Assembly: GCA_023818655.1 (NCBI GenBank)
Contig: JAMWCI010000001.1
Span: 1-45,677, forward strand
Direction: 5' to 3'
Source: Candidatus Omnitrophota bacterium
GTDB taxonomy: Bacteria > Omnitrophota > Gorgyraeia > Gygaellales > Profunditerraquicolaceae
Length of the DNA stretch: 45,677 nt
The translations under genes were made by a program, and so were the position numbers. Under the pieces are notes generated by a model. That model worked only from the letters and a program-made list of their open reading frames with translations, had not been told where the DNA came from and did no database searches. Below, in pieces: positions 14,583 through 36,491 of this stretch. Within the stretch, counting starts at the first letter, position 1. Each line of letters opens with the position of its first letter.

Positions 14583-14585
14583 ATC

Positions 14586-15914: not shown

Positions 15915-15917
15915 TCT

Positions 15918-16436: not shown

Positions 16437-16449
16437 ATCTGCCCTTTCT

Positions 16450-18757: not shown

Positions 18758-20272
18758 CTATAGCCGGAGCTGTGCTGCGCCCCTGAGCGATTCCTTATCT
18801 ATCTTTCCTGTCCTGTTCTTGGGAAGGGCGCTGCGGAATTCAAAATAATGCGGTATTTTAAAGTGGGCTAAATGCTGACGACAGAAATAACGCATCTCCT
18901 CTTCGCTGACGCGGCTATTTTCTTTTAATACGATAAAGGCCTTGGGTACCTCTCCCCGCAATTTATCCGGAACGCCTACCACAGCTACCTCCACGACATC
19001 CGGATGTCTATGTATAACGCTCTCTACCTCTGGTTCAAAGACGATCTCGCCAGCCACTTTAATCATCTCTTTTTTTCTGCCTACGATGTAAAGGAATCCT
19101 TCTTCATCAAATTTACCCAAATCTCCGGTATGAAACCATCCGCCGCGCATAGTCTGGGAAGTAAGTTCTGGGTCCTTATAATAACCTTCAGTAACTACCC
19201 AGCCGCGCACAACTATCTCTCCTATTTCTCCATTCAAGACTTCCCGGTCATTATCATCCACTATCTTAAGCTCAATCCAGGGCGCAACCCTGCCTACGCT
19301 TTCAATTTTCTGTGAACCCTTAGGTAAAACCGCATTGGGCGCATTTGTCTCAGTCATCCCCCAGCCATGCAAGAGATGTGCGTTCGGACAATAAGTATGA
19401 AAACGACGCAGCTGTTCTGCCGAGCCGGGAGCGCCGAAAGAAACAATCCATTTCAGACTGGATAAATCAAAACTTTCAAATTCCTTTAGCTGCAAAAAGG
19501 CGTAATACATAGGAGGAACTAACCAAAAACAGGTTACTCTATAATCCTGCACATTCTTCAGGAATTCCAATGGGATAAACCTCTCCATCAGCACTACGGT
19601 GGTGCCGAAAAATATGGCGCTTTGCAAAAAAAGCATACCGCCCAAGTGAGAAAGAGGCAGGGCGCAAAGAGCAATATCTTCAGCTTTAAGCTCCGCAAAA
19701 TACTCCATCGCCTTGGGAGAGGCAGCAAGTTGCAGGTAGTTAATCAAAACCCCTTTGGGTTTTCCGGTTGTGCCAGAGGTATAAAAAATAATCGCCTGGT
19801 CCTTGTCATCTGCATCAATAGACGGAGGATTGACATTTGCCTTAGAAAGCAGTTTATCAAGACGCATATATCCATCGGTATGCTGGTCGCAAAAAATAAT
19901 GTATTCCAGTTTAGGACAACTCTTCTTGATTTTTTCCAGGCAGACGGTTGCTTTCGGCTTGGCAATCAATATTTTCGCCCCACAATGCGCTATGCAAGAA
20001 ACAAGCTCGTCTTCTGTAAGCATAAAATCAAGCGGCACAATGGTAGCTGCGGTACACCAGACGGCCAAATAACTGTAGAGATATTCCGGACAATTGGGCA
20101 AATAAACCGCAACCTTATCATTCCTCTTTACGCCTAAAATAGATAAGCTGCTTGCCAGACGAAACGATAACTCTTTTAGTTCTAAAAAACTGATGCGTTG
20201 CTCCTTAAAGATTATCGCGCTCTTTTCGGAAAAGGAAGTTGCGTTTTTCTGTAGAAGTTCTCTAATCTGCAT
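18758..20272 (-). CDS. AMP-forming acyl-CoA synthetase / ligase (ANL superfamily)
   Basis: It has the AMP-binding motif IIFYTSGTTGKPKGV, then WGMTE, HTGDLG, and a C-terminal PKNRTGKIDK. Confidence 0.85.
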   Translation of the reverse strand: MQIRELLQKNATSFSEKSAIIFKEQRISFLELKELSFRLASSLSILGVKRNDKVAVYLPNCPEYLYSYLAVWCTAATIVPLDFMLTEDELVSCIAHCGAKILIAKPKATVCLEKIKKSCPKLEYIIFCDQHTDGYMRLDKLLSKANVNPPSIDADDKDQAIIFYTSGTTGKPKGVLINYLQLAASPKAMEYFAELKAEDIALCALPLSHLGGMLFLQSAIFFGTTVVLMERFIPLEFLKNVQDYRVTCFWLVPPMYYAFLQLKEFESFDLSSLKWIVSFGAPGSAEQLRRFHTYCPNAHLLHGWGMTETNAPNAVLPKGSQKIESVGRVAPWIELKIVDDNDREVLNGEIGEIVVRGWVVTEGYYKDPELTSQTMRGGWFHTGDLGKFDEEGFLYIVGRKKEMIKVAGEIVFEPEVESVIHRHPDVVEVAVVGVPDKLRGEVPKAFIVLKENSRVSEEEMRYFCRQHLAHFKIPHYFEFRSALPKNRTGKIDKESLRGAAQLRL

Positions 20273-20277
20273 AGAAA

Positions 20278-21726
20278 TCAGAATCCGTACCAGTAACGAA
20301 CAATAGGTTGGGAATTTTCTGTCCTGTCGGTTAAAATACTCTTAAGCCGGGTATACTCAAGGAATCCTTCCTTGCCCAACTCTTTGCCAAAACCGCTTTG
20401 TTTAAACCCACCGTAAGGAACTTCATTGAAAAACATGCCGTAGGTATTTACCCAGATGGTTCCGGAATTGATTCTTCTGCTTATCTCCTGTGCAACCGAT
20501 ATATCTTTGGTCCAGATGCAGGCTGCCAAGCCAAAGCTTGAGTTATTGGCAAGCGTAATTGCCTCCTCTGTGTCGGAAAATCTATGGATAGTAACCACAG
20601 GGCCGAATATCTCTTCTTTAAATATGCTCATCTGCGGATGAACATCTGTGAATACAGTGGGCTCAAAAAAGAAACCCTTTTTTAAGGCCGGCTCATCCGG
20701 CGCCTTGCCACCGCACAATAATCTTGCCCCGGCCTTCTGTGTAAGACCGACATACTGGTATATCTTTTGACGTTGCGCCTCGGAAATTAGCGGTCCCATC
20801 TGAGTTTCGAAATCCTCCCCCGGACCTAGCTTTATGCGTTTTACCTTATCCACAAATTCATCGACGAATTTATTATAAATATCATCTTCCACCAAAAGGC
20901 GTGACATTGCCGTACACATCTGCCCTTGGTTGAGAAAGATAGAGCAGAGCGAACCGTTAACCGCCAGGTCTATATCCGCATCTTTTAAAACAAGACTGGC
21001 GGATTTTCCTCCTAATTCCATAAGCAGCTTCTTGGAGTATCTTGCCGCAAAACTAACTATCTCTCTTCCGACGCTATTACTGCCAGTAAAGGAAATCATG
21101 TCCACGCGATTATCAGAACAAAGCGCCTTGCCTATCTCTTGACCGCTTCCTACCACTATATTAAATACTCCTTTTGGCAAACCGGACCTCTCCACAATTT
21201 TCGCCAGTTCCAGCGCAGTAAGGGGCGTGAGACTGGAGGGTTTTAAAATTACGGTATTTCCCGCAGCAAGAGCCTGAGCTACTTTCCAGGAGGCGATTAA
21301 CAAAGGATAATTCCATGGCACAATCAATGCCGCTACGCCTAAAGGTTCTCTAATCAGCGCGGCGCTGGCTGAGGCAATCTGGGTCTTTATTTCCACCTTC
21401 TCTTCCACTAAATACTCCTGAAGGTGCTCGGCAAAATACTGAAAGGTTTGGGCGCTGGAGGGAATATCCATAAATGTAGATTCTTTAATGGGCTTTCCTG
21501 TGTTTATGGTCTCCAGCTGCGCCAAGGCTTGCGCATTCTCTAAAATTCCCTGGCTAATCTTAAGCAGAATCTCCTTGCGCTCGGCAAGAGAGAAATTCCT
21601 CCAAGGCCCAAGATCATAAGCCCGGCGCGCCTCTTCTAAGACAGCATCTACGGCATCCTTATCCGCGAGCCCAACCTCGCAAATAACTTCGCCATTGGAA
21701 GGATTGATTATCTTCTGGCTTTTCAT
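20278..21726 (-). CDS. NAD(P)+-dependent aldehyde dehydrogenase
   Basis: It has the ALDH catalytic motifs MELGGKSA (Glu) and FLNQGQMCTAMSR (Cys), the Rossmann region FTGSNSVG, and a C-terminal PYGGFKQSGFG. Confidence 0.9.
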   Translation of the reverse strand: MKSQKIINPSNGEVICEVGLADKDAVDAVLEEARRAYDLGPWRNFSLAERKEILLKISQGILENAQALAQLETINTGKPIKESTFMDIPSSAQTFQYFAEHLQEYLVEEKVEIKTQIASASAALIREPLGVAALIVPWNYPLLIASWKVAQALAAGNTVILKPSSLTPLTALELAKIVERSGLPKGVFNIVVGSGQEIGKALCSDNRVDMISFTGSNSVGREIVSFAARYSKKLLMELGGKSASLVLKDADIDLAVNGSLCSIFLNQGQMCTAMSRLLVEDDIYNKFVDEFVDKVKRIKLGPGEDFETQMGPLISEAQRQKIYQYVGLTQKAGARLLCGGKAPDEPALKKGFFFEPTVFTDVHPQMSIFKEEIFGPVVTIHRFSDTEEAITLANNSSFGLAACIWTKDISVAQEISRRINSGTIWVNTYGMFFNEVPYGGFKQSGFGKELGKEGFLEYTRLKSILTDRTENSQPIVRYWYGF

Positions 21727-22733
21727 TTGAATTTCACCTGCCTAAATATGGAAAAAAGCCGAGTAAAAGGCACATACCACTTGGAAAGCTGGCCCAGCTG
21801 GCCTGATAATTTCATCTTCCCTTGGGTAACCGCCACAAAAGAATCCAGTTTACCTAAAAAGACCTGCTCCCAGATATCTCTCGGTGCGGAAATTACAAAA
21901 GGGGCATTGGCATCAAAATCTAAGCACACAATCTTTCCTTTTTCAAAATTGAATTTATAAGCAGAATCAGAGCCGTCCATCTTTATGGCCAGTTGCACGG
22001 TCAAATCCAGCTCTTTTCCTTTTTGGGCGATAAACTCATCCTTGTTGACCAAATCCACAATTGCCTGGATATGCTCCCGGGAAAACATCGGATATGCTGC
22101 TTCTTGTCTGGTGAGTTCTTCTTTCAGGCCGTTATCTAAATCGTCAAAGGCCTCTTTATTAAAGAGTCTGGCAATAGCAGCGCTTTTGACTGCCTCCTCC
22201 AACGCCTCAATCAACGTCAGGGCATCTTTAAAATTCTGTCCTATAACTACTACACCATGGTTTTTCAGCACTACCAGATTATTTGACTTTAAGGCATTAA
22301 TAACCGGCTGGGGCTGTGTGACAGTAGGAGTTTCCTGTTTTACAGACGGAACTTCGCCTAAATAAAGTTTAGTTTCAAAGGTCAACGCCTTTAACGAATC
22401 GTAAACGCTAAAATACCCGTTTATCAAAGGAGGATGACAATGCACTACTACCTGAACAGGAAAATTTTTGTAAACTAAGCTATGCAGCGGAAGTTCTGAA
22501 CTGGGATTTTTAGAATCGAGGGACTCTCCGCTGGCTAAACTAACTCTGACAATATCTTCGGGCGTCAAATCGCCCAGAGAGGTTCCGGTAGCGGTAATAA
22601 GGATATTGTATTCGTCAATTCTGCAGCTGAGATTGCCTGAATTAGCTACTGCCAGGCCTGCTTCATACAGCCGCCTGCCTACTCTAATAATCTCTTCCTT
22701 CAATCTTCCTCCGGATTCCGGGATACGATACAA
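21723..22733 (-). CDS. Class II aldolase/adducin-fold enzyme fused to a C-terminal SCP2 (sterol-carrier-like) domain
   Basis: N-terminal residues 1 to about 200 show the aldolase-II pattern (NSGNLSCRIDE..ILITATGTSLGDLTPEDIV .. SSELPLHSLVY .. VVVHCHPP .. VLKNHGVVVIG). C-terminal residues about 235-336 show an SCP2 pattern (..FVISAPRDIWEQVFLGKLDSFVAVTQGKMKLSGQLGQLSKW). The start is uncertain: the longest ORF begins at a TTG and there is no nearby ATG. Confidence 0.7.
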   Translation of the reverse strand: MYRIPESGGRLKEEIIRVGRRLYEAGLAVANSGNLSCRIDEYNILITATGTSLGDLTPEDIVRVSLASGESLDSKNPSSELPLHSLVYKNFPVQVVVHCHPPLINGYFSVYDSLKALTFETKLYLGEVPSVKQETPTVTQPQPVINALKSNNLVVLKNHGVVVIGQNFKDALTLIEALEEAVKSAAIARLFNKEAFDDLDNGLKEELTRQEAAYPMFSREHIQAIVDLVNKDEFIAQKGKELDLTVQLAIKMDGSDSAYKFNFEKGKIVCLDFDANAPFVISAPRDIWEQVFLGKLDSFVAVTQGKMKLSGQLGQLSKWYVPFTRLFSIFRQVKFK

Positions 22734-22736
22734 TTT

Positions 22737-23708
22737 TCAATTTTTGCTTTGGTTTAAAAGGTGAACAACATCCCCGATATTCAAATAAATATGCTTGGTG
22801 ATTAAATTGCTGGGTGTTATGTCAAACGCCGGATAATATCCCTTGACTCCCTTTGGCGCAATAGAGATGCCGCAAAATTCCAATAATTCCCCCTCTGGAC
22901 GGATTTCAAGTTGAATATCCTCTCCTGTTTTAGCAAGAGAGACTGGAGAACAAAGCACATAAAAAGGAATCTTAAAATAATCTGCCATAATGGCAATCTG
23001 GTATGTTCCTATCTTATTGGCGATATCGCCGTTTTGGGCTAAGTTATCCGCGCCAACTATGACTTTGGAAATTTTTCCTTCCTTCATCACCTCTGCTACC
23101 ATATTATCGGCGATAACAGTGACATTACACCCTGCCTTTTTTAGTTCCCATGCAGTAAGACGGCTGCCCTGCAAATAAGGACGGGTCTCCGTAACAAAAA
23201 AACTTACGGATTTATTTTGCTGGCGGCATAATCTGGCAATTAAAGGCATAAGCCCGCTGACATTGCAATGGGTAAGAATTGTATCCTTATCGTCTATTAA
23301 TCCACTACATTCCTTTGCCTGCTCTATGCGTTTTGCCTTTAATCCTTCCAAAAAATTCAAGATGCCATTATCCAGCCGGACACCTTGCTTATGTAAACCA
23401 ATGGCAAGGTCAGTTAAAAACTTAAAAGATAGCGTTGGCCGAACGCTATTGAAGGCATCGGCAACATTAGACAGAATCTGAGCAATATTTTTTTTGTTCT
23501 GGTTTCGCCTGTATTCCAATAAAAAGGAATACATCACCAGCAATACCTGACCTATAGCGCGGGTCTTCATCTGTTTAATTGCCGATACCGCCTGTTTGTA
23601 ATTTCCTACTTTGATATATTTTAATTTATGCGGCAGCAATGTCTCATCTAAGATATAAATAAATTTACCTTTCAATTTCACCGGCCAAAACAAAGGAGAA
23701 TATTTCAT
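22737..23708 (-). CDS. eIF-2B alpha/beta/delta-family sugar-phosphate isomerase (MtnA-like; methylthioribose-1-P / 5-deoxyribose-1-P isomerase candidate)
   Basis: It has ILDETLLP near the N-terminus, ILTHCNVSGL (the catalytic Cys context of MtnA), and VIVGADNLAQNGDIANKIGTYQIA (the catalytic Asp context). Confidence 0.7.
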   Translation of the reverse strand: MKYSPLFWPVKLKGKFIYILDETLLPHKLKYIKVGNYKQAVSAIKQMKTRAIGQVLLVMYSFLLEYRRNQNKKNIAQILSNVADAFNSVRPTLSFKFLTDLAIGLHKQGVRLDNGILNFLEGLKAKRIEQAKECSGLIDDKDTILTHCNVSGLMPLIARLCRQQNKSVSFFVTETRPYLQGSRLTAWELKKAGCNVTVIADNMVAEVMKEGKISKVIVGADNLAQNGDIANKIGTYQIAIMADYFKIPFYVLCSPVSLAKTGEDIQLEIRPEGELLEFCGISIAPKGVKGYYPAFDITPSNLITKHIYLNIGDVVHLLNQSKN

Positions 23709-24457
23709 ATCCTTCCTTCTAACTTCTTTACCGTTGCCAGTCCGATATTAATCAGATTTGTCTCTGCCATATAATAAAGCGGATTCATAAAACCCATCTC
23801 TCCGGTTACGACATTGTCGCTGACTGCAAGGATTGAACCTGCTTTTACCTTATGCAGCTGCGCAATAGTCAGGAGCGCTGAAGAAACCATATCCACGGCA
23901 ATTGCGCCTTCTCTACGCCTGGCCTCCACAATCTGACGCGTCTCCCGCAATAACGCATCCGTAGTCCAGACAATCCCTCGATGGATATTTACGCCTAAGT
24001 CTTTGGCAACTTCATACAAGGTGTCGGAGATTGTTTTGTCAGCCACAGTTTGAAAATTCTCATCTACATAGTAAGGCGTTACCCCATCTCCTCGGATAAC
24101 CTTATCCACAATCACCAGATCGCCTATCTTGATATTATCATCCAAAGCCCCGCAGGTTCCGATGCGGATAATATTTTGTATGCCGGCATTGCACATCACC
24201 TCGGTGGTAATAGAGGTATCTGTGGAGAATCTACCGCCATTAATGGCGGTAATTCTTATCCCCTCATAGACGCCGGTATACATAGTGTATTCCATAAAAG
24301 AAAAATTGCGCACTGGATTCTCTATTTTTTTTACCAAGACTTCCAAACGGTCCTTTGGTCCGGGCACTATGGCATATTTGCCCACATCCTGAGGCCTCAA
24401 CTGCACCATATTGGTTAAATCTTTTCCGGTTAAATGAACATCCTTCTGCATCTGCAT
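23705..24457 (-). CDS. Nucleoside phosphorylase, NP-I (DeoD/Udp-like) family
   Basis: 250 aa with the pattern AIVPGPKDR .. YTGVYEGIRITAINGGRFSTDTSITTEVMCNAGIQNIIRIGTCGAL .. GDLVIVDK, typical of hexameric purine/uridine phosphorylases. Substrate cannot be read from the sequence. Confidence 0.7.
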   Translation of the reverse strand: MQMQKDVHLTGKDLTNMVQLRPQDVGKYAIVPGPKDRLEVLVKKIENPVRNFSFMEYTMYTGVYEGIRITAINGGRFSTDTSITTEVMCNAGIQNIIRIGTCGALDDNIKIGDLVIVDKVIRGDGVTPYYVDENFQTVADKTISDTLYEVAKDLGVNIHRGIVWTTDALLRETRQIVEARRREGAIAVDMVSSALLTIAQLHKVKAGSILAVSDNVVTGEMGFMNPLYYMAETNLINIGLATVKKLEGRI

Positions 24458-25128: not shown

Positions 25129-25175
25129 CAACGTACTTCTGCCTATCCTGCGTTCATTCCAAACAGTATTTAGTT

Positions 25176-26105
25176 TTATGGCGACGATGACAAAGAAAAG
25201 GCTAACAGGCTTTCTAAATTCCTGCCTAAAATATTATTTTTATCTTCCTCTGAAATCGCTAATTCTCTGACTGCTCCGATGGAGTTGCTAATATCTTTTT
25301 TAGCTGGCCAGTCGCTACCCCAGAGTATATGCCTTGGCCCAAATAATTCAAGCGCCAAAAGAAAATTTGCCTTTGTCTTATCTCCGCCGGTATCCACATA
25401 GATATTCTTTAAATAATCCGAGGGGTTACCTTTTAAATCCTTTACGAAATTAATGCTGCGCAGCATAGAATAGGTGGCGTCAAATCTGTGCTGCAAAAAA
25501 GGTATTACCCCGGCAAAATGGGCAAAGATGAATTTAAGGTCATAATAATCGCGCAGGATATCGCTCATCAGGAGCTTGCCCGCGCTTAAGGTGATATCAA
25601 AAACATACCCAATCACCGGGGTTAAAAGCGGATCCTGCAACCGCTCTGCTCCTATAGGGTTTACAATCTGGGCATGTACAAAGATGGGAATCTTCTTCTG
25701 ACGGGCAATATTGTATACAGGAAGAAAACGCTGGTCATCCAGATATATTCCGTTGTAACTTGAGGCTAGGGAAATCGCCTTAAATCCCAACTCTTCAGTC
25801 GCTCTCTTTAACTCCTCGCACATATCTTTCGGATTATCTATAGGCAGCATTGCCGCACCGATGAATCGGTGAGGATAGCGCTTAATGATTTTGGCGACAT
25901 TATCGTTGTAGATACAAGCTGTCCGGGAAACGCTACCTATTTTCAGGTGCGCATCTGAAGTAGGATAGGAAAGCACAGCCTTGCTGATGCCTGCCTCATC
26001 CATAGCCTTAAGCTGGGCTTCGATATCGCCCCAGCCCTTGTGAAAGAAATGGGCGTTGGTTATAATCTCTTCGGGTAACCAGTGGGCATGGCTATCTATT
26101 ATCAT
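25176..26105 (-). CDS. Amidohydrolase-2 family metal-dependent hydrolase/decarboxylase (ACMSD-like)
   Basis: It begins MIIDSHAHWLPEE, the metal-binding HxH at the start. The C-terminal LWGSDWP is typical of the amidohydrolase-2 fold. Confidence 0.8.
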   Translation of the reverse strand: MIIDSHAHWLPEEIITNAHFFHKGWGDIEAQLKAMDEAGISKAVLSYPTSDAHLKIGSVSRTACIYNDNVAKIIKRYPHRFIGAAMLPIDNPKDMCEELKRATEELGFKAISLASSYNGIYLDDQRFLPVYNIARQKKIPIFVHAQIVNPIGAERLQDPLLTPVIGYVFDITLSAGKLLMSDILRDYYDLKFIFAHFAGVIPFLQHRFDATYSMLRSINFVKDLKGNPSDYLKNIYVDTGGDKTKANFLLALELFGPRHILWGSDWPAKKDISNSIGAVRELAISEEDKNNILGRNLESLLAFSLSSSP

Positions 26106-27143: not shown

Positions 27144-27920
27144 CTATTTATCAGGGTGCTGTTGTTGAAATGGTATAACCGGCTTTGTCCAAGGCGTCTG
27201 CTGGTTTATAATGGAAATCTCCAAGGGGCAAACATTTGCCGGCACAGTCAGGGCAAATTTTACCGCATTCTCTATCGCCTCGGTAGTCATTAAGCGCGAT
27301 GTATCTGTGGTAACTTCTTTGAGCTTGCCGGTCAGGTCCGTATCCGTAACCCCGGGAAGAAGCGAGGTAATCTTAATCCCGTAGTCGCGAATCTCCCAAA
27401 AAAGCCCTTTTAAAAATGCGCGCAAGCCTACCTTTAAAGAGCTATACACCAGAAAATTTCTGGGCAAGGGGTCGCAAAGGGTTGAGCCGGAAACAATACT
27501 GATAATCGCCCCGGATTTATTTTTTATCATATCGTTAATCACCAGCCGGATGAGCCGGACATAGCCCATATAGTTAGTATGCGCCAGTTTCTCAATATCA
27601 TCAATGGGTTGCTCTGGAAAAGGATATTGACTGGAGACCCCGGCGTTGTTAATCAGAATATCTATCCTGCCAAACCGCTCCTTGGTTTTATTAACCAGGT
27701 TTTGCAGGTCTTCAAGTTTTGCCACATCGCAAACCACTGGCAAGACTTCTACCTTATATTTTTTAGCTATCTCTTCAGCTGCTTCTTTAAGCGGGCCTTC
27801 AGCCCTGGCTGCAATAACCACATTTATCCCAAGGCTGGCCACAGTAGAAGCCAAGGCCTTGCCTATGCCCCGGCTTGCTCCGGTAACAATGGCGGTTTTT
27901 CCTTTAAGTTCGCTAATCAT
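27144..27920 (-). CDS. Short-chain dehydrogenase/reductase (candidate polyketide ketoreductase)
   Basis: It has TGASRGIGKA for cofactor binding, NNAG, and the catalytic YSSLK (Y-x-x-x-K). There is a strong SD (GAGGAGG). Confidence 0.85.
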   Translation of the reverse strand: MISELKGKTAIVTGASRGIGKALASTVASLGINVVIAARAEGPLKEAAEEIAKKYKVEVLPVVCDVAKLEDLQNLVNKTKERFGRIDILINNAGVSSQYPFPEQPIDDIEKLAHTNYMGYVRLIRLVINDMIKNKSGAIISIVSGSTLCDPLPRNFLVYSSLKVGLRAFLKGLFWEIRDYGIKITSLLPGVTDTDLTGKLKEVTTDTSRLMTTEAIENAVKFALTVPANVCPLEISIINQQTPWTKPVIPFQQQHPDK

Positions 27921-27942: not shown

Positions 27943-29070
27943 CTACGTCCGATTAACCAACAGCAATCTCTTCTCCAATAACAATAAAATGGTCAGACAC
28001 CCTCCGCAAAAGACAAAATTACTAACCGGGCTTTTCTGCAAAAGCATCCCTCCTAAACCGGCTCCTATGCCTCCGGAGATAAAACGGATGCTGCTGTTTA
28101 AGCTGGCGGCTTCGTAAAGAAAATTTTTCGGCAGATCAGTAAGAATGGTAGAAAGCCCAACGTGATTCATTGTCCAGCCCCAGCCCCAGATAATCATCAG
28201 TAGCGCCAATAAAAAAATCGGCATCTTAATCACCAGAGAAAACGCGCTTAAAATCATCAGGATAATCCCCAGTTTGATTGTTTTAAGCCTGCCCAATGAA
28301 TCTGCCAGCCTCCCTCCTAGCACTTCTCCAAAAATTCCGCTTACGCTGGTTAAGGTAATCAACATACTGATTAAGAATTGCCCCAGCCCCAACTGAAAAG
28401 AAAAATATACCGCCAACCACTGCTGCAGGCCATGATAGATTAGACTGATAAAAAATATATAGGTAAATACAGACAAAAATCTCCTGTCTTGAAAAGCATT
28501 AAGGTAATTCGTCCTAAAAATTCCTTCCTCACTAGTAAGACAGGGAAGATAAAAATACATCGCCAAACATAGACAAATACCTGCTACTGCCGGAATAATA
28601 AAAATCACCCGCCAGGGCAATACCCCGCTTAAGAAAAGCCCGCAAAGGGAGGCGATAAAAGTAGCGCCAAAGAAGAGCCCTATGTGTTTGCCTCTTTTAT
28701 CAGCCTCTATCTGCTGACCAATAAGGATAATCCCCACGGGAATAACCGATGCGCCGAATATCCCCGTCAAAAACCTTGCCCAGAATAGCTGATAGATATT
28801 TGCGGATAATCCCGCTAAAAGATTAGCAAGAGAAAATAAACCCAGACAGGTCATTTCTATCTTCTTGGCGTCAAAGAGCCGGACCAGCGGTCCATAGATA
28901 AGCGCGGCAAGACCGTAAGGAATCATATACAGCCAGATAATTCTTCCGGCAAAAAATTGAGAAACGAGAAAATCCTTGGCAATAGAAGGCACCAACGCGG
29001 CAGAAGCTGCCACATTAAAAGAAAGAATCGCTGCCTCTAAACACAGGATAAGAAAAACGTTTTTTTTCAT
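27943..29070 (-). CDS. Major facilitator superfamily transporter
   Basis: About 12 predicted TM helices with typical MFS loop composition. I call the ATG at 29070 (MKKNVFLILCLE...). The track start at 29112 is a TTG lying inside the upstream gene. Confidence 0.75.
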   Translation of the reverse strand: MKKNVFLILCLEAAILSFNVAASAALVPSIAKDFLVSQFFAGRIIWLYMIPYGLAALIYGPLVRLFDAKKIEMTCLGLFSLANLLAGLSANIYQLFWARFLTGIFGASVIPVGIILIGQQIEADKRGKHIGLFFGATFIASLCGLFLSGVLPWRVIFIIPAVAGICLCLAMYFYLPCLTSEEGIFRTNYLNAFQDRRFLSVFTYIFFISLIYHGLQQWLAVYFSFQLGLGQFLISMLITLTSVSGIFGEVLGGRLADSLGRLKTIKLGIILMILSAFSLVIKMPIFLLALLMIIWGWGWTMNHVGLSTILTDLPKNFLYEAASLNSSIRFISGGIGAGLGGMLLQKSPVSNFVFCGGCLTILLLLEKRLLLVNRT

Positions 29071-29086
29071 AGTAAGGACTGTTTGC

Positions 29087-29530
29087 CTATTGCCTGGCGG
29101 CTTCCCTTTCAATAATCTGCTTAAAAATCTTCAGATTTGTCTGAGAACCTTCGTTAATGAAGCCCTCCACCTGCTGGTCATTGAATTTTGCTTTCTCATC
29201 CATCTCAAAATGCTGAATCCAGCTCATCTCTATGCCTTCTGGTTTGGGAGTATAAAGCCAGATGATCTTCATATACTTAAAAGGAAATTTTGGCTCTTGC
29301 CTTTCGGCATAAGCAAAGTATTTGTCTTTAAACAAAAGTCGCCAGGATACCCAGGATTTACCTTCTTCATCAGTCAGGCGGAAGGTGAGCTTATTGTCTT
29401 TTCTCTCCAAGACCTCCGCCTTTTGGTATTCCCCGCCAAAAAGTTCTGTCCAGCGAGAGATATCGTTTGAGATATCAAAAACCAAATCGTATGGTGCGTT
29501 GATGATAATGGAATTGCAGGTATGCCCCAT
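29087..29530 (-). CDS. SRPBCC/START-fold polyketide aromatase-cyclase, mono-domain TcmN-like
   Basis: 147 aa. The pattern HTCNSIIINAPYDLVFDISNDISRWTELF..EYQKAEVLER....LTFRLT .. PFKYMKIIWLY .. GIEMSWIQHFEMD matches, as I remember it, the TcmN/WhiE-type ARO/CYC pattern. There is a strong SD (AAGGAGGGAG). Confidence 0.7.
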   Translation of the reverse strand: MGHTCNSIIINAPYDLVFDISNDISRWTELFGGEYQKAEVLERKDNKLTFRLTDEEGKSWVSWRLLFKDKYFAYAERQEPKFPFKYMKIIWLYTPKPEGIEMSWIQHFEMDEKAKFNDQQVEGFINEGSQTNLKIFKQIIEREAARQ

Positions 29531-29567: not shown

Positions 29568-30359
29568 TTAAATTACCGCTACAACCCTTGCCCAGGCAGC
29601 GCCGGTACATTTAATCCTTATCGGAAAACAGATTACCTTAAAGCCAAAATCCGGCAGTTTCTCCAGATTAGCTAAACGCTCAATGTGGATAAACTCCCTT
29701 TTTCTGCCGTAAAAATGCGCCGGATACAATGGTTTTCTCTGTTCTAAAAACTCTCTGAGCATAAATTTATATGGCCGGTCAATCCCCATAGTATCCACGC
29801 CAAAGATTTTTACCCCCCTATCCAGAAGATAATCTATCGCTGAAATATCTACTCCTGGATAATCGGAAAAATATCTTGGAGTGCCATAAAATTTATCCGC
29901 GCCGGTCTGTAAGAGAACTACGTCTTTTTCTTTAATGGTGTAATTTATCTTTTTAAGCCCGCTTTCAATATCCGCCGCGCTAATTACCTCTGCCGGCCTC
30001 TTATGCCTGAAATCCAACCTGACCCCGTCAGAGTAACACCACTCCAAAGGAATCTCATCAGCGCTCTTAGAGGGTCGGCCCTCAGACTTTGAACCGTAGT
30101 GGAAAGAGTAATCCAGGTGCGTGCCGATATGCACCGGAGAATGCACTACTTCCAGAGAGAGAAATTCTCCTTCCGGCAGGTCCTCTTTTTTTAAGATGCG
30201 CAAACCCAGCAGATACTTTATCCTGCCAAGGAGGGTCTTAACCATAATAACGCGGTTGAATTTCTCTACGCCTGCCTTATGCGAAATCCGCTCAATATCC
30301 ACCTTATGTATCTCAAAGGCACTCTCGTCAATGGGCAGGCTTAAATCAATTATCTTCAT
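29568..30359 (-). CDS. Cyclase-family protein (kynurenine-formamidase-like Zn hydrolase/cyclase fold)
   Basis: It has the H-x-G-T-H-x-D-x-x-x-H motif (HSPVHIGTHLDYSFHYG). The size is right at 263 aa. It is ATGA-coupled to the ACP gene. Confidence 0.7.
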   Translation of the reverse strand: MKIIDLSLPIDESAFEIHKVDIERISHKAGVEKFNRVIMVKTLLGRIKYLLGLRILKKEDLPEGEFLSLEVVHSPVHIGTHLDYSFHYGSKSEGRPSKSADEIPLEWCYSDGVRLDFRHKRPAEVISAADIESGLKKINYTIKEKDVVLLQTGADKFYGTPRYFSDYPGVDISAIDYLLDRGVKIFGVDTMGIDRPYKFMLREFLEQRKPLYPAHFYGRKREFIHIERLANLEKLPDFGFKVICFPIRIKCTGAAWARVVAVI

Positions 30360-30592
30360 TTTGCAATCTTAGACTGAATTACCTTATCAATATCATTAAT
30401 GGTAGAAAACTTGGTAACCTCCTTTGCGCCCAAGGATATGCCGAAGACCTTTCCCAAAGCAATCACTGCCTCTACCATCTCAGTAGAATCCACACCTATT
30501 GAATCCTGCAAGGAGACATCATCCTTCAACTCTTCCGGCTTGACCTTAAGCAGATTAATCAATATTTCTTTTATCTTCGCTTTCGTATCCAT
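30356..30592 (-). CDS. Acyl carrier protein
   Basis: 78-aa acidic protein with the phosphopantetheine attachment motif GVDSTEMVE (Ser36). It has an SD (AGGAGAGGG). Confidence 0.85.
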   Translation of the reverse strand: MDTKAKIKEILINLLKVKPEELKDDVSLQDSIGVDSTEMVEAVIALGKVFGISLGAKEVTKFSTINDIDKVIQSKIAK

Positions 30593-30607: not shown

Positions 30608-32068
30608 TTAAATCTGAATCTCACCTTTGGTTGCTGCGGCTTCCCATTTTCCAATGCCTGACATAACATCCTGAAAACAAAGTTTTGCCAAAGGGTCAAA
30701 GTTGCTCTCCATAATCCTGTTTATGCGTCCGGGCTTGGAATAAAATTCGCGCATACACCAAGCGCCCAAACGGCCTAACTCTTCAATCGTTAAATGGTCT
30801 GTGGGTATGACTGGATGCAAAAAATCCCAGGTGCTAAAATCTACTTTCTTGGGGTCAATCCAGTTTTTCTTCAGGGCTATCCTCCACATGGGGGAATTCG
30901 GGGCAGGGGTTACATAACCAATCCATAACACATCCGGGTCAACCTCATCGGCAAACTCAAACCTCTGCTTGATAATTGCCTCGGTATCGTAATCAAACCC
31001 AATCATAATATCCGCCACAATCGCAATATCATTCCTGCGCAAAATCTCAATGGTTTTTTTAATCTGTTCGATGGTGGTGCCTTTGGCAATCCGTTTCAGC
31101 TCCTCCGGAGTTGTAACCTCAATACCAAACACGCCCATAAATAAACCCGTTTCTTTCATTAGCGGCAGGATATGTTCACAATTTACCCAGTCCACTGCCC
31201 GACCCAAAGAAACCCACTTAATGGGGATATTCTTTTCTTTCTTTAATTCGCAAAATCTTTTTACCCGCTGCGGGTCAACATTAAAATTGTCGTCTTGAAT
31301 AACCACTACCTTTACGCCATACTTTTTATGAAGTAGTTCCATCTCTTCAATTACCCTCTCCGGAGACTTTGCTCGCCATTTCAAGAAGTCCGAAGGAGAA
31401 CGCGGGTCAAACTGGTCCCATTCATAGCAGAATGTGCAGGCAGATGGACAACCCCGGGAAGTAATCATATCCACGAAGGGCTTCCAGTGGGTATGCCCCA
31501 CGTATTTATCCATCGGGAACAGGTCATACGCCGGAAGGGGCAGCTTATCCAAATCACTCATCAACGGCTTATGCGGACCCATAACAATCTCTCCGTCAAT
31601 GCGCGAGGTGACTCCGCCGATATTTCTTAAGTCTTTCTTTTTATCAATCGCCTCAATTAAATCCGCAAAAGATTCTTCTTCTCCCATCACTACAAAATCT
31701 ACTGCCGGATTTTCCTCCAAGGTCTGTGTCGGCATAGCAGAGTACCATAAACCTCCCAGGATTATTTTTACCTTGGGAAGCGCCTGTTTAATCCTTACGC
31801 CTGCCTCCTTAAAATGGCGCAAGACGCCGTAGCCGGCATAACCGTGTATCTGTTCACCCATGACCACAATATCAGGGTTTTTGCTCTTGACCTGTTCGAT
31901 TAATTGCTCCATGGGAATCTCTAAGGCCCTTCCGTCAATAACCCCTACGTCAGCATATCCTCGCTGGCGTATATACGCTGCCCAATGGGCATAAAGCTGG
32001 TTCGGAGACTTATGGATTCCATGCGTTGCCCAGGCGCCGACTTTCGGCATAACAAATAAGATTTTCAT
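30608..32068 (-). CDS. B12-binding-domain radical SAM enzyme (class B)
   Basis: The N-terminal Rossmann-like B12-binding domain pattern runs MKILFVMP ... DIVVMGEQIH ... IILGG. It is followed by ITSRGCPSACTFCY (CxxxCxxC; Cys212/216/219 in ORF-track numbering). I call the ATG at 32068, which lies 8 nt after a GGAGG. The track start at 32083 is an alternative. Confidence 0.85.
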   Translation of the reverse strand: MKILFVMPKVGAWATHGIHKSPNQLYAHWAAYIRQRGYADVGVIDGRALEIPMEQLIEQVKSKNPDIVVMGEQIHGYAGYGVLRHFKEAGVRIKQALPKVKIILGGLWYSAMPTQTLEENPAVDFVVMGEEESFADLIEAIDKKKDLRNIGGVTSRIDGEIVMGPHKPLMSDLDKLPLPAYDLFPMDKYVGHTHWKPFVDMITSRGCPSACTFCYEWDQFDPRSPSDFLKWRAKSPERVIEEMELLHKKYGVKVVVIQDDNFNVDPQRVKRFCELKKEKNIPIKWVSLGRAVDWVNCEHILPLMKETGLFMGVFGIEVTTPEELKRIAKGTTIEQIKKTIEILRRNDIAIVADIMIGFDYDTEAIIKQRFEFADEVDPDVLWIGYVTPAPNSPMWRIALKKNWIDPKKVDFSTWDFLHPVIPTDHLTIEELGRLGAWCMREFYSKPGRINRIMESNFDPLAKLCFQDVMSGIGKWEAAATKGEIQI

Positions 32069-32088
32069 TCTCAAGCCCTCCATTTCTT

Positions 32089-32133: not shown

Positions 32134-33363
32134 TTATGGTTTTTCTACGACCAAGACCGCATTAATCCCTCCCCTGCCGCGGGAGATGGCCAAGGCTTTC
32201 TTAATCTTGTGCTCTTGCGCTTGTTTTCTGACGTAATTTAATGAATTCTGCGCAGGTTCATCAAGATTTATGGTAGGTGGAATTAAATTATGCTCCATAG
32301 CCAAAAGGGTAATTATCAAATCTATGGCCCCTGAAGCGCCTAAGAGATTTCCGAACATAGACTTTGGACAGCTGACAGGTATCTCTTTAAGCCTATCTCC
32401 AAAAACAATCCTTAAAGATTCTATCTCTGAGTTATCCCAGATATCCACAGCCAGACCATCAAGGCTGATAAAATCTATCTCCTCGGCTTCTGTCTTGGCA
32501 TCAGCAAGCGCCGTCTTAATTGCCCGGGCTAACTCTTGGCCGTCTGCGGCCGGATTAATCCTGTCTGCGCCGTCACAAGTTGTGCCGTAACCGGAAACTA
32601 AACCCAAGATATTTCCTCCCCGCGCAAAAGCGCGTTCAACACTCTCCATCACAACAATCCCTGCGCCTTCTGCGATAACAAAACCATTGCGTCTCTTATC
32701 AAATGGCCGGTAGGCCTCCTGCGGATGGGCGTTATCTGTGGAGAGCCCTCCGTAAGTGTTGCAGCATAACAGCGCATAGGGAGTAACCGGCGCCTCCATA
32801 CCGCCGGCTAAAATCAGATTTAATTTATCTTTGGCTAAAATCTTGCGCGCATAACCAATAGCCATTGTTGAACTTGCCCGGTCAGCGACTACGGTTTTGG
32901 AAAATCCCTTTATCCCGTAATAAATAGAAACCTGCCCTTGGGGGGCAGCAGGAAACCAGGCAGAAGCCATATAAGGAGAAACTCCTTCCCTGCCCTCAAT
33001 ATACATATCGCGCAATTCTGTCTCGGCATACAGCCAGCCGCCAATGGCATTGCCTAAAAATATCCCTACAAGATTAGGATTTTCTTTTTTAATATCTATG
33101 CCAGCATCCTGCAAGGCAAACTCTGAGGCAATCAAGGCCATATGCGAGAAGGCGTCAATCTTTTTTAAGAGCCGCGGCGAGATAGTGGAGTATTTTTCCA
33201 ACTCGTCAATCTGACCGGCAATATGCGAAGGGTATTTTGAGGCATCAAAACGGGTAATTTTCTTGACAAAGGAACGACCGCTTTTGATGTTTGCCCAGAA
33301 TTGACGTTTGCCAATCCCTGATGGACTAACTACGCCAATACCGCTAATGGCAATCTTATCCAT
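32134..33363 (-). CDS. Ketosynthase beta / chain-length-factor-like subunit, catalytically inactive
   Basis: It has the thiolase-fold KS pattern throughout. Column-by-column alignment to the adjacent KS-alpha puts Arg162 (codon CGG at 32880-32878) at the catalytic Cys position. Asp302 and Asn339 fall at the two catalytic His positions. Its start overlaps the KS-alpha stop by 8 nt. Confidence 0.8.
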   Translation of the reverse strand: MDKIAISGIGVVSPSGIGKRQFWANIKSGRSFVKKITRFDASKYPSHIAGQIDELEKYSTISPRLLKKIDAFSHMALIASEFALQDAGIDIKKENPNLVGIFLGNAIGGWLYAETELRDMYIEGREGVSPYMASAWFPAAPQGQVSIYYGIKGFSKTVVADRASSTMAIGYARKILAKDKLNLILAGGMEAPVTPYALLCCNTYGGLSTDNAHPQEAYRPFDKRRNGFVIAEGAGIVVMESVERAFARGGNILGLVSGYGTTCDGADRINPAADGQELARAIKTALADAKTEAEEIDFISLDGLAVDIWDNSEIESLRIVFGDRLKEIPVSCPKSMFGNLLGASGAIDLIITLLAMEHNLIPPTINLDEPAQNSLNYVRKQAQEHKIKKALAISRGRGGINAVLVVEKP

Positions 33364-34618
33364 TAAACCTCCGTAAAATTAAAGAAGAGTGAATCCCGGA
33401 GAAGCCGCTTGAAGTCTTCATCAGACAATTTATCCGCTTCTGGCGGGCTACATTAGGTATATAATCCAAATCGCACTGAGGGTCTTTCTCCTCCTGATTT
33501 ATTGTAGGAGGAAGAAAATTCTTTTCAAACATCATCGCATTGACGGTTAACTCCACGGCATTAGCTGCTGCCAGAGGATGACCAATCATAGATTTTAAGG
33601 AACTAATCGGCACCTTATAGGCATAATCGCCAAAAACTGTTTTGTAGGCAGCGGTCTCAAAGATATCGTTCATCCGGGTAGAAGAGCCATGCGCGCCGAT
33701 GTAATCAATCTCCTGTGGTTTAATCCCGGCGTCTTTTAAAGCCAAAACAATACAATTAGCCATAGCCGTGCCATCCGCCGGTAAATCCGTCATATGAAAT
33801 GCGTTGCAGCTCGTACCAAAACCGACCACCTCGCAATATATATGCGCATTTCTTTTTAAGGCGTGGTTTAATTCTTCTAAAATCAAAATTCCAGCCCCCT
33901 CCCCCAAGACAAAACCGTCGCGCCTATTATCAAATGGCCGCGAGGCTTTCTCAGGTGTATCATTGCGAGTAGATAAGACGCTGATCACGTCGAATGCGCC
34001 AAAGGTAATTGGCGTAATCGGAGCTTCTGCCGCCCCGCAAATCATAATCTCCTGTTCTCCGTCTTGAATGGTTTCTAAGGCAAAACCCACAGAGTCGGTT
34101 CCGGCGGTGCAACCGGTAGATAAAGTATTGCAGATTCCTTTTAGACCATATTTAGACGAGATTTCAATAGAGGGGGTATTAAACATCGCCGCATCATAAA
34201 GGTCAGGCCTGACCTTGGCAGGGTCAATAGGTTCTTTTCCGTCATTGGTCACTAAGGCAAACTCCTCTTCCATATATTTTGTGCCGCAGATGGCATTGGC
34301 TAAACAAACCCCTATCCGCCTAGGGTCTTCTTTGCTAAAATCCAAGCCGCTATCTTTAATCGCCATTTCTCCGGCAACTAATCCGAACTGCACATAGCGG
34401 TCCATCCGCATTACTTCCTGGTGAGTGAGACCCCATTGAAAAGGGTCAAAATCGCGCACCTCTGCGGCAATCTTGGTCTGAAAGATAGAGACATCAAATC
34501 CCTCTACTCGTTTTACTGCCGATACTCCGCCAACCATTGCCTTCCAGCAATTTTCTTTGCCAATACCATTAGGGGAAATCACCCCAATACCCGTAATCAC
34601 CACCCTGCGTTTATTCAT
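33356..34618 (-). CDS. Type II polyketide ketosynthase alpha subunit
   Basis: The catalytic triad is intact: Cys170 in LSTGCTAGTDSVG (codon TGC at 34111-34109), His310 in GAHGSSTRMND, and His347 in KSMIGHPLAA. The STGCT.G.D.VG and HGS.T..ND contexts are of the KS-alpha type rather than the FabF type. Confidence 0.85.
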   Translation of the reverse strand: MNKRRVVITGIGVISPNGIGKENCWKAMVGGVSAVKRVEGFDVSIFQTKIAAEVRDFDPFQWGLTHQEVMRMDRYVQFGLVAGEMAIKDSGLDFSKEDPRRIGVCLANAICGTKYMEEEFALVTNDGKEPIDPAKVRPDLYDAAMFNTPSIEISSKYGLKGICNTLSTGCTAGTDSVGFALETIQDGEQEIMICGAAEAPITPITFGAFDVISVLSTRNDTPEKASRPFDNRRDGFVLGEGAGILILEELNHALKRNAHIYCEVVGFGTSCNAFHMTDLPADGTAMANCIVLALKDAGIKPQEIDYIGAHGSSTRMNDIFETAAYKTVFGDYAYKVPISSLKSMIGHPLAAANAVELTVNAMMFEKNFLPPTINQEEKDPQCDLDYIPNVARQKRINCLMKTSSGFSGIHSSLILRRFNG

Positions 34619-36216: not shown

Positions 36217-36491
36217 CTGTGTATTTCCTGTTTTGTCTTGGGAAAACCGTATTTTTTGTAGTCAAAGCCGGTCTGCTCCAATAGACGCACCATCATGCTG
36301 TAAAAAGGCGAAGGCACATCCGCAAAAAACGCGCCTATTACATCCTCCTCTTCAATTTTCGGCGAGCCCCTTTTTAAAGCCAGTTCTTCTGCCTTCTTAA
36401 TCACTATCTCCTCTGTTATGCGACGGTGAAAGAGGGGGATTTTGGAAATAAAGATTTTGAATTTATCCTGCACCGTTCTTTCCCATTCCAT
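36213..36491 (-). CDS. Small PCP-reductase-like (BchB/ChlB C-terminal-like) domain protein
   Basis: 92 aa. The pattern WERTVQDKFKIFISKIPLFHRRITEEIVIKKAEELALKRG resembles the W..eA...l.kiP.FvR......e..A...G pattern of that domain. It is the first gene after the promoter and is ATGA-coupled to the next gene. This assignment is tentative. Confidence 0.5.
   Translation of the reverse strand: MEWERTVQDKFKIFISKIPLFHRRITEEIVIKKAEELALKRGSPKIEEEDVIGAFFADVPSPFYSMMVRLLEQTGFDYKKYGFPKTKQEIHR

Follow-up and report, generated by a model that had tools for sequence, protein, structure and literature searches.

The five-gene module

The window analyzed here is the whole stretch of 45,677 nt of contig JAMWCI010000001.1 from a Candidatus Omnitrophota bacterium, and it carries a module of five genes encoding a nucleoside phosphorylase, an MtnA-type isomerase, a class II aldolase fused to an SCP2 domain, an aldehyde dehydrogenase (ALDH), and an AMP-forming ligase (Table 1). 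A first interpretation made from the letters alone, hereafter the sequence-only reading, had placed phosphorylase, isomerase, aldolase, ALDH, and ligase in this order at 18758-24457 and had likened them to the dihydroxyacetone phosphate (DHAP) shunt, by which 5'-deoxyadenosine or methylthioadenosine (MTA) is salvaged. When the open reading frames (ORFs) of the window were assigned to families by Pfam scans, the five ORFs were found exactly there, on the minus strand like all genes of the surrounding cluster, and both ATGA junctions that had been claimed turned out to be real overlaps, one at the phosphorylase/isomerase border and the other at the aldolase/ALDH border. The initial observation of a five-gene module is confirmed. 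Its co-occurrence is not a matter of chance, since synteny of the genes extends to 76 species genomes and, in an independent retrieval, to 28 of 28 metagenome loci. The latter were found in a search seeded with the B12-binding radical S-adenosylmethionine (SAM) enzyme (B12-rSAM) of the same cluster; all 28 with enough flanking sequence possess the phosphorylase, the isomerase, and the aldolase fusion, and they are close relatives only (84-92% identity).

That the window is devoid of the canonical genes of methionine salvage was borne out as well: Pfam scans of essentially all non-overlapped window ORFs of at least 110 aa revealed neither an enolase-phosphatase nor an acireductone dioxygenase nor a RuBisCO-like gene, and the gene tables read for nine related loci list no called gene for MtnC, MtnW/X, or MtnD. 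The module had further been described as bracketed by two radical SAM genes. One of them, rlmN, does lie directly downstream, but nine genes and about 6 kb separate the module from the B12-rSAM gene upstream. Of the suggested connection to radical SAM chemistry, the part concerning the B12-rSAM stands, as this enzyme is linked to the module, whereas the adjacency of rlmN is local synteny only.

Phosphorylase and isomerase

The phosphorylase belongs to the PNP_UDP_1 family, but it fits none of the NCBIfam models for MTA phosphorylase (MTAP; 21 bits versus a cut-off of 275), DeoD (99 versus 230), or uridine phosphorylase (124 versus 280). A weak match to HpnG is likewise far below the family cut-off. 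Its best matches in the PDB are the uridine phosphorylase of Streptococcus pyogenes and the purine nucleoside phosphorylase (PNP) of Thermus thermophilus. The phosphate-binding Arg residues (PGPKDR, IRIGTCG) are kept, the insertion bearing the uracil-binding residues is missing, and the last strand is followed by Ser-Asp, as in the purine-type DeoD of Escherichia coli, in which the Asp is the acid that protonates N7 of the purine. The phosphate Arg contributed by the neighboring subunit is replaced by Met, and the ribose motif E-M-E is changed to D-M-V. Alignments to the PDB entries show these substitutions as well. The signature is preserved in the related loci L077, L080, L081, and L084, down to 44% identity. 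By its motifs, the phosphorylase is a subfamily of its own, with a purine-type Asp and with predicted changes in its phosphate and ribose contacts.

The isomerase passes the general family model TIGR00524 (196.8 versus a cut-off of 185.85) and scores 241 against a cut-off of 271 with the MtnA subfamily model, in contrast to only 110 against 314 with the ribose-1,5-bisphosphate isomerase model TIGR00511. Its closest PDB entries, 1t9k and 2yrf, are MtnA enzymes. Both the Cys context THCN and the Asp context GADxxxxNGD, to which the sequence-only reading had drawn attention, are present, the latter as GADNLAQNGD, and they align with the catalytic region of MtnA from Bacillus subtilis and Thermotoga maritima. 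Model scores and catalytic residues thus classify this protein as an MtnA-type enzyme and not as a ribose-1,5-bisphosphate isomerase, and the window contains no RuBisCO. In two other versions of the cluster (A' and B, see below), a paralogue of about 160 aa corresponding to the C-terminal half of the IF-2B isomerase is encoded between isomerase and aldolase; it is missing from the window, and in L084 it is fused to the isomerase.

The aldolase is fused to an SCP2 domain

The aldolase ORF encodes two domains, a class II aldolase matched at residues 13-183 (domain about 10-190) and a C-terminal region of about residues 215-336, for which Pfam reports an SCP2 match at residues 244-315 just over threshold (21.8 versus 21.3). 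The likely start is a TTG at 22703 behind GGAGG, which gives a protein of 326 aa and is the one used by gene callers. A full-length AlphaFold2 model (predicted local distance difference test, pLDDT, 92.5; predicted template modeling score, pTM, 0.86) has a confident domain arrangement, and a separate model of residues 205-336 reaches a pLDDT of 90.7. In Foldseek searches, the C-terminal model matches SCP2 of T. thermophilus (1wfr/2cx7) with template modeling scores of 0.78-0.81 and E values of 4e-9 to 2e-8, and it also matches the SCP2-type UbiJ, human and insect SCP2, and C-terminal domains of alkylsulfatases. According to these models, the C-terminal domain has the SCP2 α/β fold and is predicted to bind lipid.

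At E ≤ 1e-5, 1204 proteins match the aldolase-SCP2 fusion. The best 120 of them are all full-length and at least 72% identical, and every name given by the source is Omnitrophota; the same architecture exists in about 25 further clusters of 50% identity, at 31-44% identity to the window protein. Over 52 sequences, down to 35% identity, H98, H100, H159, and E80 never change, nor do the phosphate motif G33-N34-x-S36 and a group of aromatic residues of the SCP2 domain, while the P-S-S-E context of the aldolase domain is invariant or nearly so. The His triad, the metal-bound Glu, and the phosphate pocket of class II aldolases are therefore all retained, and E80 corresponds in position to Glu76 of DrdA, the metal-bound acid/base (PMC6079011).

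When this domain was compared with MtnB dehydratases, the aldolase models outscored the MtnB models, a result of scores and not of phylogeny: the archaeal 'aldolase' model gives 107 bits and OtnC 100, as compared to 77 (cut-off 226) and 69 (cut-off 137) for the MtnB models NF006672 and TIGR03328; FucA scores lower too, and the model for haloarchaeal ribulose-1-phosphate aldolase matches weakly (60.5 versus a cut-off of 300). Neighbors in PDB and Foldseek searches are YgbL, aq_1979, T. thermophilus FucA, and DrdA, with E values of about 1e-14 to 1e-13 for YgbL, FucA, and DrdA. NCBIfam and PDB scores place the domain equidistant from YgbL/OtnC, the archaeal 'aldolases', FucA, and DrdA. Motif retention and model scores indicate that it is probably an aldolase rather than a dehydratase. 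The closest unfused relatives are encoded either next to rhamnose isomerase and aldehyde oxidoreductase genes (Chloroflexota) or next to PNP and metK genes (Thermosediminibacteraceae).

ALDH and ligase

The motifs ELGGKS and GQMCTA of the ALDH are those of hydrolytic NAD(P)+ enzymes; its nearest relatives are betaine-aldehyde, phenylacetaldehyde, and ALDH2-type dehydrogenases, and it stays under every equivalog cut-off. The ligase is nearest to luciferase-like, FadD5, 4-coumarate (4CL), and FadD13 ligases, approaches the long-chain ligase subfamily model (450 versus 476), and is far from the acetate-CoA ligase model (251 versus 729). Hence, of the ending proposed by the sequence-only reading, the oxidizing ALDH and the ligase of the ANL superfamily were recovered, but acetyl-CoA as end product is doubtful because the ligase fails the acetate-CoA ligase model. 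In other loci, the ligase gene is found at the head of the cluster beside the PadR gene (L077, L080, and L081) or upstream of the gene for a conserved 92-aa protein (L101), and in L084 a phosphopantetheinyl transferase (PPTase) is encoded two genes after it.

The surrounding cluster

By its gene content, the module is one arm of a co-directional, tightly packed cluster of about 18 kb (37107-18758) that appears to be of the polyketide/lipid type and is conserved in Omnitrophota. This larger setting, the ACP gene within it, and the SCP2 domain of the aldolase had all escaped the sequence-only reading. As read from sequence, the cluster contains the gene set of a type II synthase, i.e., a ketosynthase (KS) with its catalytic triad, a triad-less paralogue resembling a chain length factor (CLF), and a discrete acyl carrier protein (ACP). 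In a by-eye comparison with the neighboring KS, Cys, His, and His are replaced in the CLF-like partner by Arg, Asp, and Asn. The ACP gene, located between those for the B12-rSAM and the cyclase, is missed by ORF lists restricted to at least 80 aa. The B12-rSAM is BchE/HpnJ-like, falls within no defined family, has AprD4 and TokK as closest PDB entries, and is encoded in every Omnitrophota version of the cluster examined, with 50-92% identity among them. The 92-aa protein is present in every version with the reductase/KS arm, always just before the reductase, and the reductase and TIGR04076 parts of the latter are separate genes in L080.

Several neighbors are not counted as members. The SagB-type nitroreductase was rejected as part of the pathway; it occurs in none of the related loci tested, and its gene is therefore an insertion private to this genome. 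The rlmN gene and that for a GDSL lipase were rejected too, as they accompany the module only in version A. The CBM11-like and 132-aa proteins have no obvious tie to the pathway. Neither the scanned window ORFs nor the Pfam families listed for genes of related loci include SAM_HAT (fluorinase/chlorinase), and when the window and four rearranged loci were scanned against Rfam, only two tRNAs and no riboswitch for SAM, S-adenosylhomocysteine, or B12 were obtained. A promoter/terminator scan of 17-37 kb gave counts equal to the shuffled background and is thus uninformative on operon limits.

Table 1. Features of the module, the surrounding cluster, and related loci. Positions without a locus label refer to the window.
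Feature	Position	Strand	Length, score, or occurrence
Nucleoside phosphorylase (hexameric-type NP-I, distinct subfamily)	23705..24457	minus	250 aa; PNP_UDP_1, 131 bits
MtnA-type aldose-1-phosphate to ketose-1-phosphate isomerase	22737..23708	minus	323 aa; IF-2B, 179 bits
Class II aldolase-SCP2 fusion	21723..22733	minus	336-aa ORF; Aldolase_II, 128 bits
NAD(P)+ ALDH, non-acylating type	20278..21726	minus	482 aa; Aldedh, 564 bits
AMP-forming acyl-CoA (or acyl-ACP) ligase, FadD/4-coumarate ligase/luciferase type	18758..20272	minus	504 aa; AMP-binding 281 bits, AMP-binding_C 86 bits
PadR-family regulator, cluster head	36589..37107	minus	Pfam PadR 49.8 bits; also heads L077, L080, L081
92-aa conserved protein, weak DUF2621/PCP_red similarity	36213..36491	minus	orthologues of 44-73% identity
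ApbA/PanE-type NAD(P)H reductase with two Cys-rich TIGR04076 domains	34615..36216	minus	TIGR00745 198 bits; TIGR04076 95.6 bits, two stretches
FabF-type KS	33356..34618	minus	PRK07314 460 bits, cut-off 387; STGCTAG, AHGSST, IGHPL; intact Cys-His-His
KS paralogue, CLF-like	32134..33363	minus	FabF 375 bits; ADRASS, LDGLAV, FGNLL at triad positions
B12-rSAM	30608..32083	minus	BchE 218 vs 481; HpnJ 157 vs 578
ACP	30356..30592	minus	78 aa; GVDSTE; tblastn with ACPs of L077-L081; PP-binding 35.4 bits
PF04199 'cyclase', kynurenine-formamidase fold	29568..30359	minus	HxGTHxD; conserved in KS-containing versions
SRPBCC/START polyketide-cyclase-like protein	29087..29530	minus	conserved in KS-containing versions
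MFS transporter, optional member	27943..29112	minus	most, not all loci
Short-chain dehydrogenase/reductase (SDR), ketoacyl-ACP-reductase-like	27144..27920	minus	55-89% identity across KS-containing versions
Secreted CBM11-like protein	26511-27119	minus	most version A loci
132-aa protein, no family match	26102-26500	minus	most version A loci
Amidohydrolase_2, ACMSD/LigW/gamma-resorcylate decarboxylase type	25176..26105	minus	Pfam 101.7 bits; PDB 4ofc, 4icm, 3s4t; in versions A and B, not A'
SagB-type nitroreductase, hydrophobic N-terminal leader	24475-25131	minus	TIGR03605 137 bits; between amidohydrolase and phosphorylase
Isomerase half-paralogue	L077 9583-10008; L080 9523-10011; L081 9531-10004; L078 9543-10019; L079 9468-9956		
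Isomerase half-paralogue fused into 506-aa isomerase	L084 8477-9997		
Class IV aminotransferase, version B	L011 7299-8108; L014 8183-8995; L048 8242-9048; L078 7812-8615		

Cluster versions and gene linkage

With identities of 35-75%, the same genes are found again in at least three different orders. Version A, the order of the window, is that of most of the 76 species-genome loci, which were found via the aldolase fusion, and of the 28 loci found via the B12-rSAM; the best related locus is labelled Candidatus Omnitrophota, and its proteins are 78-81% identical to those of the window. Version A' is represented by L077, L080, and L081 (40-75% identity), whose module proteins are 40-65% identical to those of the window. 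Its order is PadR, ligase, phosphorylase, isomerase, half-paralogue of about 160 aa, aldolase-SCP2, ALDH, and 92-aa protein, followed by reductase, KS, dead KS, ACP, cyclase, B12-rSAM, SRPBCC protein, and SDR, and rlmN is missing. Version B, found in 13 of the 76 loci and in L078 and L079, consists of B12-rSAM, an amidohydrolase about 40% identical to that of the window, isomerase, aldolase-SCP2, and ALDH, and its KS genes are usually located upstream but not always nearby. In four version B loci checked, a class IV aminotransferase precedes the isomerase, occupying the place of the phosphorylase, and it is absent in L079. Downstream, L078 and L079 have an MMPL-type gene and then LolA-like (TP_0789/DUF1329) genes; in L078, a DeoC-family aldolase, a Zn-dependent alcohol dehydrogenase, and the MMPL transporter with the LolA-like proteins come after the ALDH. 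More distant is L084, a soil contig (33-44% identity), with the order phosphorylase, fused isomerase, aldolase-SCP2, ligase, an ORF of 100 aa, and PPTase.

Common to every Omnitrophota version examined are the B12-rSAM, the isomerase, the aldolase-SCP2 fusion, and the ALDH, and two of the three versions include the phosphorylase and the ligase as well. A linkage that is kept through rearrangement argues for functional coupling and not for mere shared ancestry of the gene order.

Discussion

The sequence-only reading likened the five genes to a salvage route of the DHAP-shunt type. Families and order do match, but a free-standing salvage operon is not what is found, as the genes are one arm of a KS/CLF-ACP/B12-rSAM cluster. 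We judge the chances to be about even that they constitute a cluster-dedicated branch of the DHAP-shunt type which converts a SAM-derived 5'-deoxy-purine nucleoside to DHAP and an acid that is handed to the KS/CLF-ACP synthase. Seen in this way, the module would serve the conserved biosynthetic cluster of Omnitrophota by supplying a substrate or by capturing a by-product. Whereas gene content, domains, catalytic and phosphate motifs, and linkage were computed, it is from these that we infer substrates, direction of flux, hand-over to the ACP, and the identity of the 5' substituent X. In the proposed sequence, the phosphorylase would strip the purine base from a SAM-derived 5'-deoxy-5'-X-nucleoside to give a 5-X-ribose 1-phosphate, which the MtnA-type isomerase would convert to the corresponding ribulose 1-phosphate. 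The metal-dependent class II aldolase would cleave the latter to DHAP and X-CH2-CHO, its fused SCP2 domain holding a hydrophobic part of substrate or product. The ALDH would then oxidize X-CH2-CHO to X-CH2-COOH, and the ligase would adenylate the acid and transfer it to CoA or to the ACP of the cluster, after which it might be extended by the KS/CLF pair. Phosphorolysis, isomerization, retro-aldol cleavage, oxidation, and thioesterification, i.e., the chemistry already put forward by the sequence-only reading, is the most economical interpretation of the five proteins. In type II polyketide synthases, a Cys/Gln position of the CLF serves decarboxylative self-priming. As the CLF-like partner is without such a self-priming residue, an acid delivered by the ANL ligase would be a natural starter, and the PPTase near the ligase in L084 points in the same direction.

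The substituent X could be H (5'-deoxyadenosine), SCH3 (MTA), or a larger hydrophobic group. A small group would fit version B, which could make use of a housekeeping phosphorylase, while a hydrophobic group would explain the invariant SCP2 domain, the type of ligase, and the specialized phosphorylase.

Several observations weigh against a dedicated supply branch. Unrelated neighbors, namely rlmN and leuS, are also syntenic in most loci, which stem from related genomes, so that the synteny of version A alone proves little and the case for coupling rests on the few rearranged versions. Version B lacks phosphorylase and ligase and yet keeps isomerase, aldolase, and ALDH, meaning that neither a dedicated entry of nucleosides nor an exit through the ligase is obligatory, and L084 is without an ALDH. 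The phosphorylase, which is devoid of the second-subunit phosphate Arg and the ribose-binding Glu, might not phosphorolyze ordinary ribonucleosides. The aldolase domain stays below all curated family cut-offs, so that its chemistry might also be that of a dehydratase, epimerase, or decarboxylase. Finally, two contigs of the Thermodesulfobacteriota type, L082 (10001-11002) and L083 (10001-11008), carry the fusion alone with neither phosphorylase nor isomerase nearby, so that it has at least one further role.

Plain salvage or detoxification of 5'-deoxyadenosine and/or MTA, which would yield DHAP and acetate or methylthioacetate and pass the CoA ester to general metabolism with no carbon reaching the KS/ACP system, seems unlikely to us, yet it is the strongest competitor. 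The co-location of the B12-rSAM would then reflect removal of its inhibitory by-product. Trios of phosphorylase or kinase, isomerase, and aldolase are established for 5'-deoxyadenosine/MTA in several phyla (PMC6079011, PMC10986504), the set of radical SAM enzyme, isomerase, aldolase, and ALDH shared by all Omnitrophota versions examined is what a by-product route needs, a housekeeping phosphorylase could serve version B, and in a Thermosediminibacteraceae genome an unfused relative of the aldolase stands beside a PNP-family gene and metK. However, salvage explains neither the invariance of the SCP2 domain nor a FadD/4CL-type ligase that fails the acetate-CoA ligase model, nor does it account for a specialized phosphorylase subfamily. 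It also sits poorly with the PPTase close to the ligase in L084, with the co-migration of the ligase with PadR and KS genes in rearranged loci, and with the consideration that the first enzyme alone would relieve inhibition.

An extension of the supply branch that takes the hydrophobic option further is that a radical SAM enzyme adenosylates a hydrophobic intermediate, that phosphorylase, isomerase, and aldolase-SCP2 trim the adduct to -CH2-CHO, and that ALDH and ligase convert this to -CH2-CO-S-CoA/ACP, which re-enters elongation by KS/CLF. The SCP2 domain would grip the hydrophobic tail during aldol cleavage, and the net result would be a SAM-driven extension by two carbons (carboxymethyl) at an unactivated carbon. 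By analogy with known radical adenosylation pathways such a route can be imagined, but we regard it as improbable, and no radical SAM enzyme of the HpnH or MqnE type is conserved in the cluster.

Still less probable is a condensing aldolase, or a sugar phosphate that does not derive from a nucleoside. Here, condensation of DHAP with a hydrophobic aldehyde held by SCP2 would produce a lipid- or polyketide-linked ketose 1-phosphate, which isomerase and phosphorylase-like enzyme would process toward a glycolipid- or nucleoside-like head group. Class II aldolases are indeed reversible and promiscuous for aldehydes (PMC6079011), SCP2, START proteins, and MFS/MMPL exporters suggest a hydrophobic product, and an unusual sugar would be in keeping with the atypical contacts that the phosphorylase is predicted to make with ribose and phosphate. 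Against this, the hydrolytic Glu and Cys motifs of the ALDH are those of enzymes that oxidize aldehydes irreversibly, it comes directly after the aldolase in versions A and A' and before the ligase in the window, as fits a path from aldehyde to acid to thioester, and no acyl-CoA/ACP reductase able to supply the aldehyde was identified.

Two further explanations can be set aside as highly improbable. Oxygen-independent methionine salvage, with the fusion protein as an MtnB-type dehydratase and with ALDH, amidohydrolase, and the class IV (branched-chain-type) aminotransferase of version B as finishing enzymes, could invoke the MtnA-type isomerase, the class II aldolase fold of MtnB, and the position of the aminotransferase beside the isomerase, class IV aminotransferases being the catalysts of the final methionine-salvage step in some bacteria, but the MtnB scores lie below the aldolase models and far under their cut-offs, no enolase-phosphatase, RuBisCO-like protein, or dioxygenase is encoded in the window or in any locus examined, and SCP2, ligase, KS/CLF, and ACP would be left without a role. 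Catabolism of nucleoside ribose via ribose 1-phosphate, ribulose 1-phosphate, and DHAP plus glycolaldehyde to glycolate and glycolyl-CoA, resembling the end of the haloarchaeal non-carboxylating pentose bisphosphate pathway, would agree with a phosphorylase of the DeoD/uridine-phosphorylase rather than the MTAP type and with the weak match to haloarchaeal ribulose-1-phosphate aldolase, but that match is far under its cut-off, the isomerase is of the MtnA type, neither a ribose-1-phosphate kinase nor a phosphatase was found in any locus examined, and the context is biosynthetic, not catabolic.

Comparison of the proposed supply branch with characterized systems helps to define what is unusual about it. 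5-Deoxyribose disposal proceeds via MtnP or MtnK, MtnA, and Ald2 in the DHAP shunt or via DrdK, DrdI, and DrdA (PMC6079011, PMC10986504), and versions of the first three steps initiated by a phosphorylase have been described (PMC6079011). With the module, these routes share the three enzyme families, the logical order of the steps, and a link to by-products of radical SAM enzymes. In contrast, the aldolase of the cluster contains SCP2, whereas DrdA and FucA-type structures comprise about 200-220 aa without it, the phosphorylase is of a separate subfamily and not MTAP, and the module continues with an ALDH and a FadD/4CL-type ligase of its own. Also, the shunt is encoded by a stand-alone salvage operon, sometimes with sugar transporters, while the genes studied here are embedded, in three gene orders, in a PadR-headed KS/CLF-ACP-B12-rSAM cluster.

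A biosynthetic precedent is the fluoroacetate pathway of Streptomyces cattleya, in which fluorinase, the phosphorylase FlB, an isomerase, an aldolase, and a fluoroacetaldehyde dehydrogenase act in succession, the last one oxidizing fluoroacetaldehyde. Both this pathway and the proposed branch have phosphorylase, isomerase, class II aldolase, and ALDH acting biosynthetically on a SAM-derived 5'-substituted 5'-deoxyadenosine, with a substituted acetate as outcome; they differ in that neither the window nor the related loci gave a SAM_HAT gene, that a CoA/ACP ligase and KS/ACP follow, and that the aldolase is fused to SCP2. The cleavage steps of the shunt have themselves been likened to this pathway (PMC6079011). 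In anaerobic E. coli, acetaldehyde derived from the shunt is converted to acetate and acetyl-CoA (PMC10986504). The oxidative ending, in which the sequence-only reading had seen a difference from the known shunt, is thus not new, since oxidative fates of the aldehyde are known from both organisms.

Other systems share single elements with the cluster. Radical adenosylation with subsequent removal of the base occurs in the futalosine pathway (MqnE/MqnB). The same succession, by HpnH and HpnG, builds the hopanoid side chain (PMC13459092). In both pairs, as might be the case here, a radical SAM enzyme is combined with a PNP_UDP_1 enzyme that removes the purine from a hydrophobic 5'-substituted adenosine, and HpnJ is the second-best family of the cluster's B12-rSAM, as HpnG is a weak match of its phosphorylase, all far under the cut-offs. 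However, these pathways keep the ribose carbons, which isomerase and aldolase would remove here. KS/CLF-type clusters primed by an acid:CoA/ACP ligase include those for aryl polyenes and the 'ladderane-type' clusters, and ligases of this kind are EncN of enterocin and AuaE of aurachin biosynthesis. With these clusters, that of Omnitrophota has in common a KS and its triad-less paralogue, ACP, ketoreductase, SRPBCC protein/cyclase, radical SAM enzyme, exporters, and an ANL ligase possibly delivering the starter. We found no report in the literature of a KS/CLF cluster with phosphorylase, MtnA-type isomerase, and aldolase as source of the acid. Salinosporamide biosynthesis uses SAM-derived ribose in the route to its chloroethylmalonyl-CoA extender (SalL/SalT). 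Synechococcus forms 7-deoxysedoheptulose from 5'-deoxyadenosine (PMC8102628). In both cases, as proposed for the cluster, a SAM-derived 5'-deoxynucleoside is phosphorolyzed and its sugar carbons enter a specialized product, but by dehydrogenase/dehydratase or transketolase steps in place of isomerase, aldolase, ALDH, and ligase.

Ladderane-type clusters have been reported by antiSMASH in Omnitrophota metagenome-assembled genomes (PMC9902471), and if those calls are this cluster, it is of the kind that genome-mining tools label 'ladderane-type'. The KS pair of the window, known here from sequence, is similar to the FabF/FabF-mut heterodimer of anammox bacteria (bioRxiv 10.64898/2026.05.19.726425).

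An oxidative ending and the use of SAM-derived ribose carbons in specialized metabolism are already known. No description was found in the literature of an SCP2-fused aldolase with a dedicated phosphorylase subfamily and ALDH/ligase within a KS/CLF-ACP/B12-rSAM cluster across a phylum. Enzymes of the DHAP-shunt type are known for salvage and for the use of growth substrates, and in the uncultivated Omnitrophota they have apparently been drawn into a biosynthetic cluster found across the phylum. If ribose carbon of SAM does prime or extend the KS/CLF-ACP product, this would be a further route from SAM by-products, or from adenosylated intermediates, to specialized lipids or polyketides, and it would offer a testable function for the 'ladderane-type' clusters of Omnitrophota, provided that these are the same. 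For annotation, genes of this kind should not be named 'methionine salvage' or 'fuculose aldolase'.

Other features of the window

Outside of the cluster, an ORF of 642 aa without a detectable domain occupies 43100-45028 on the minus strand, and a run of four ORFs at 14148-16956, also on the minus strand, has no Pfam family except for a weak DUF4900 match. Two divergent tRNA genes are located at 13645-13717 (minus strand) and 13799-13881 (plus strand).

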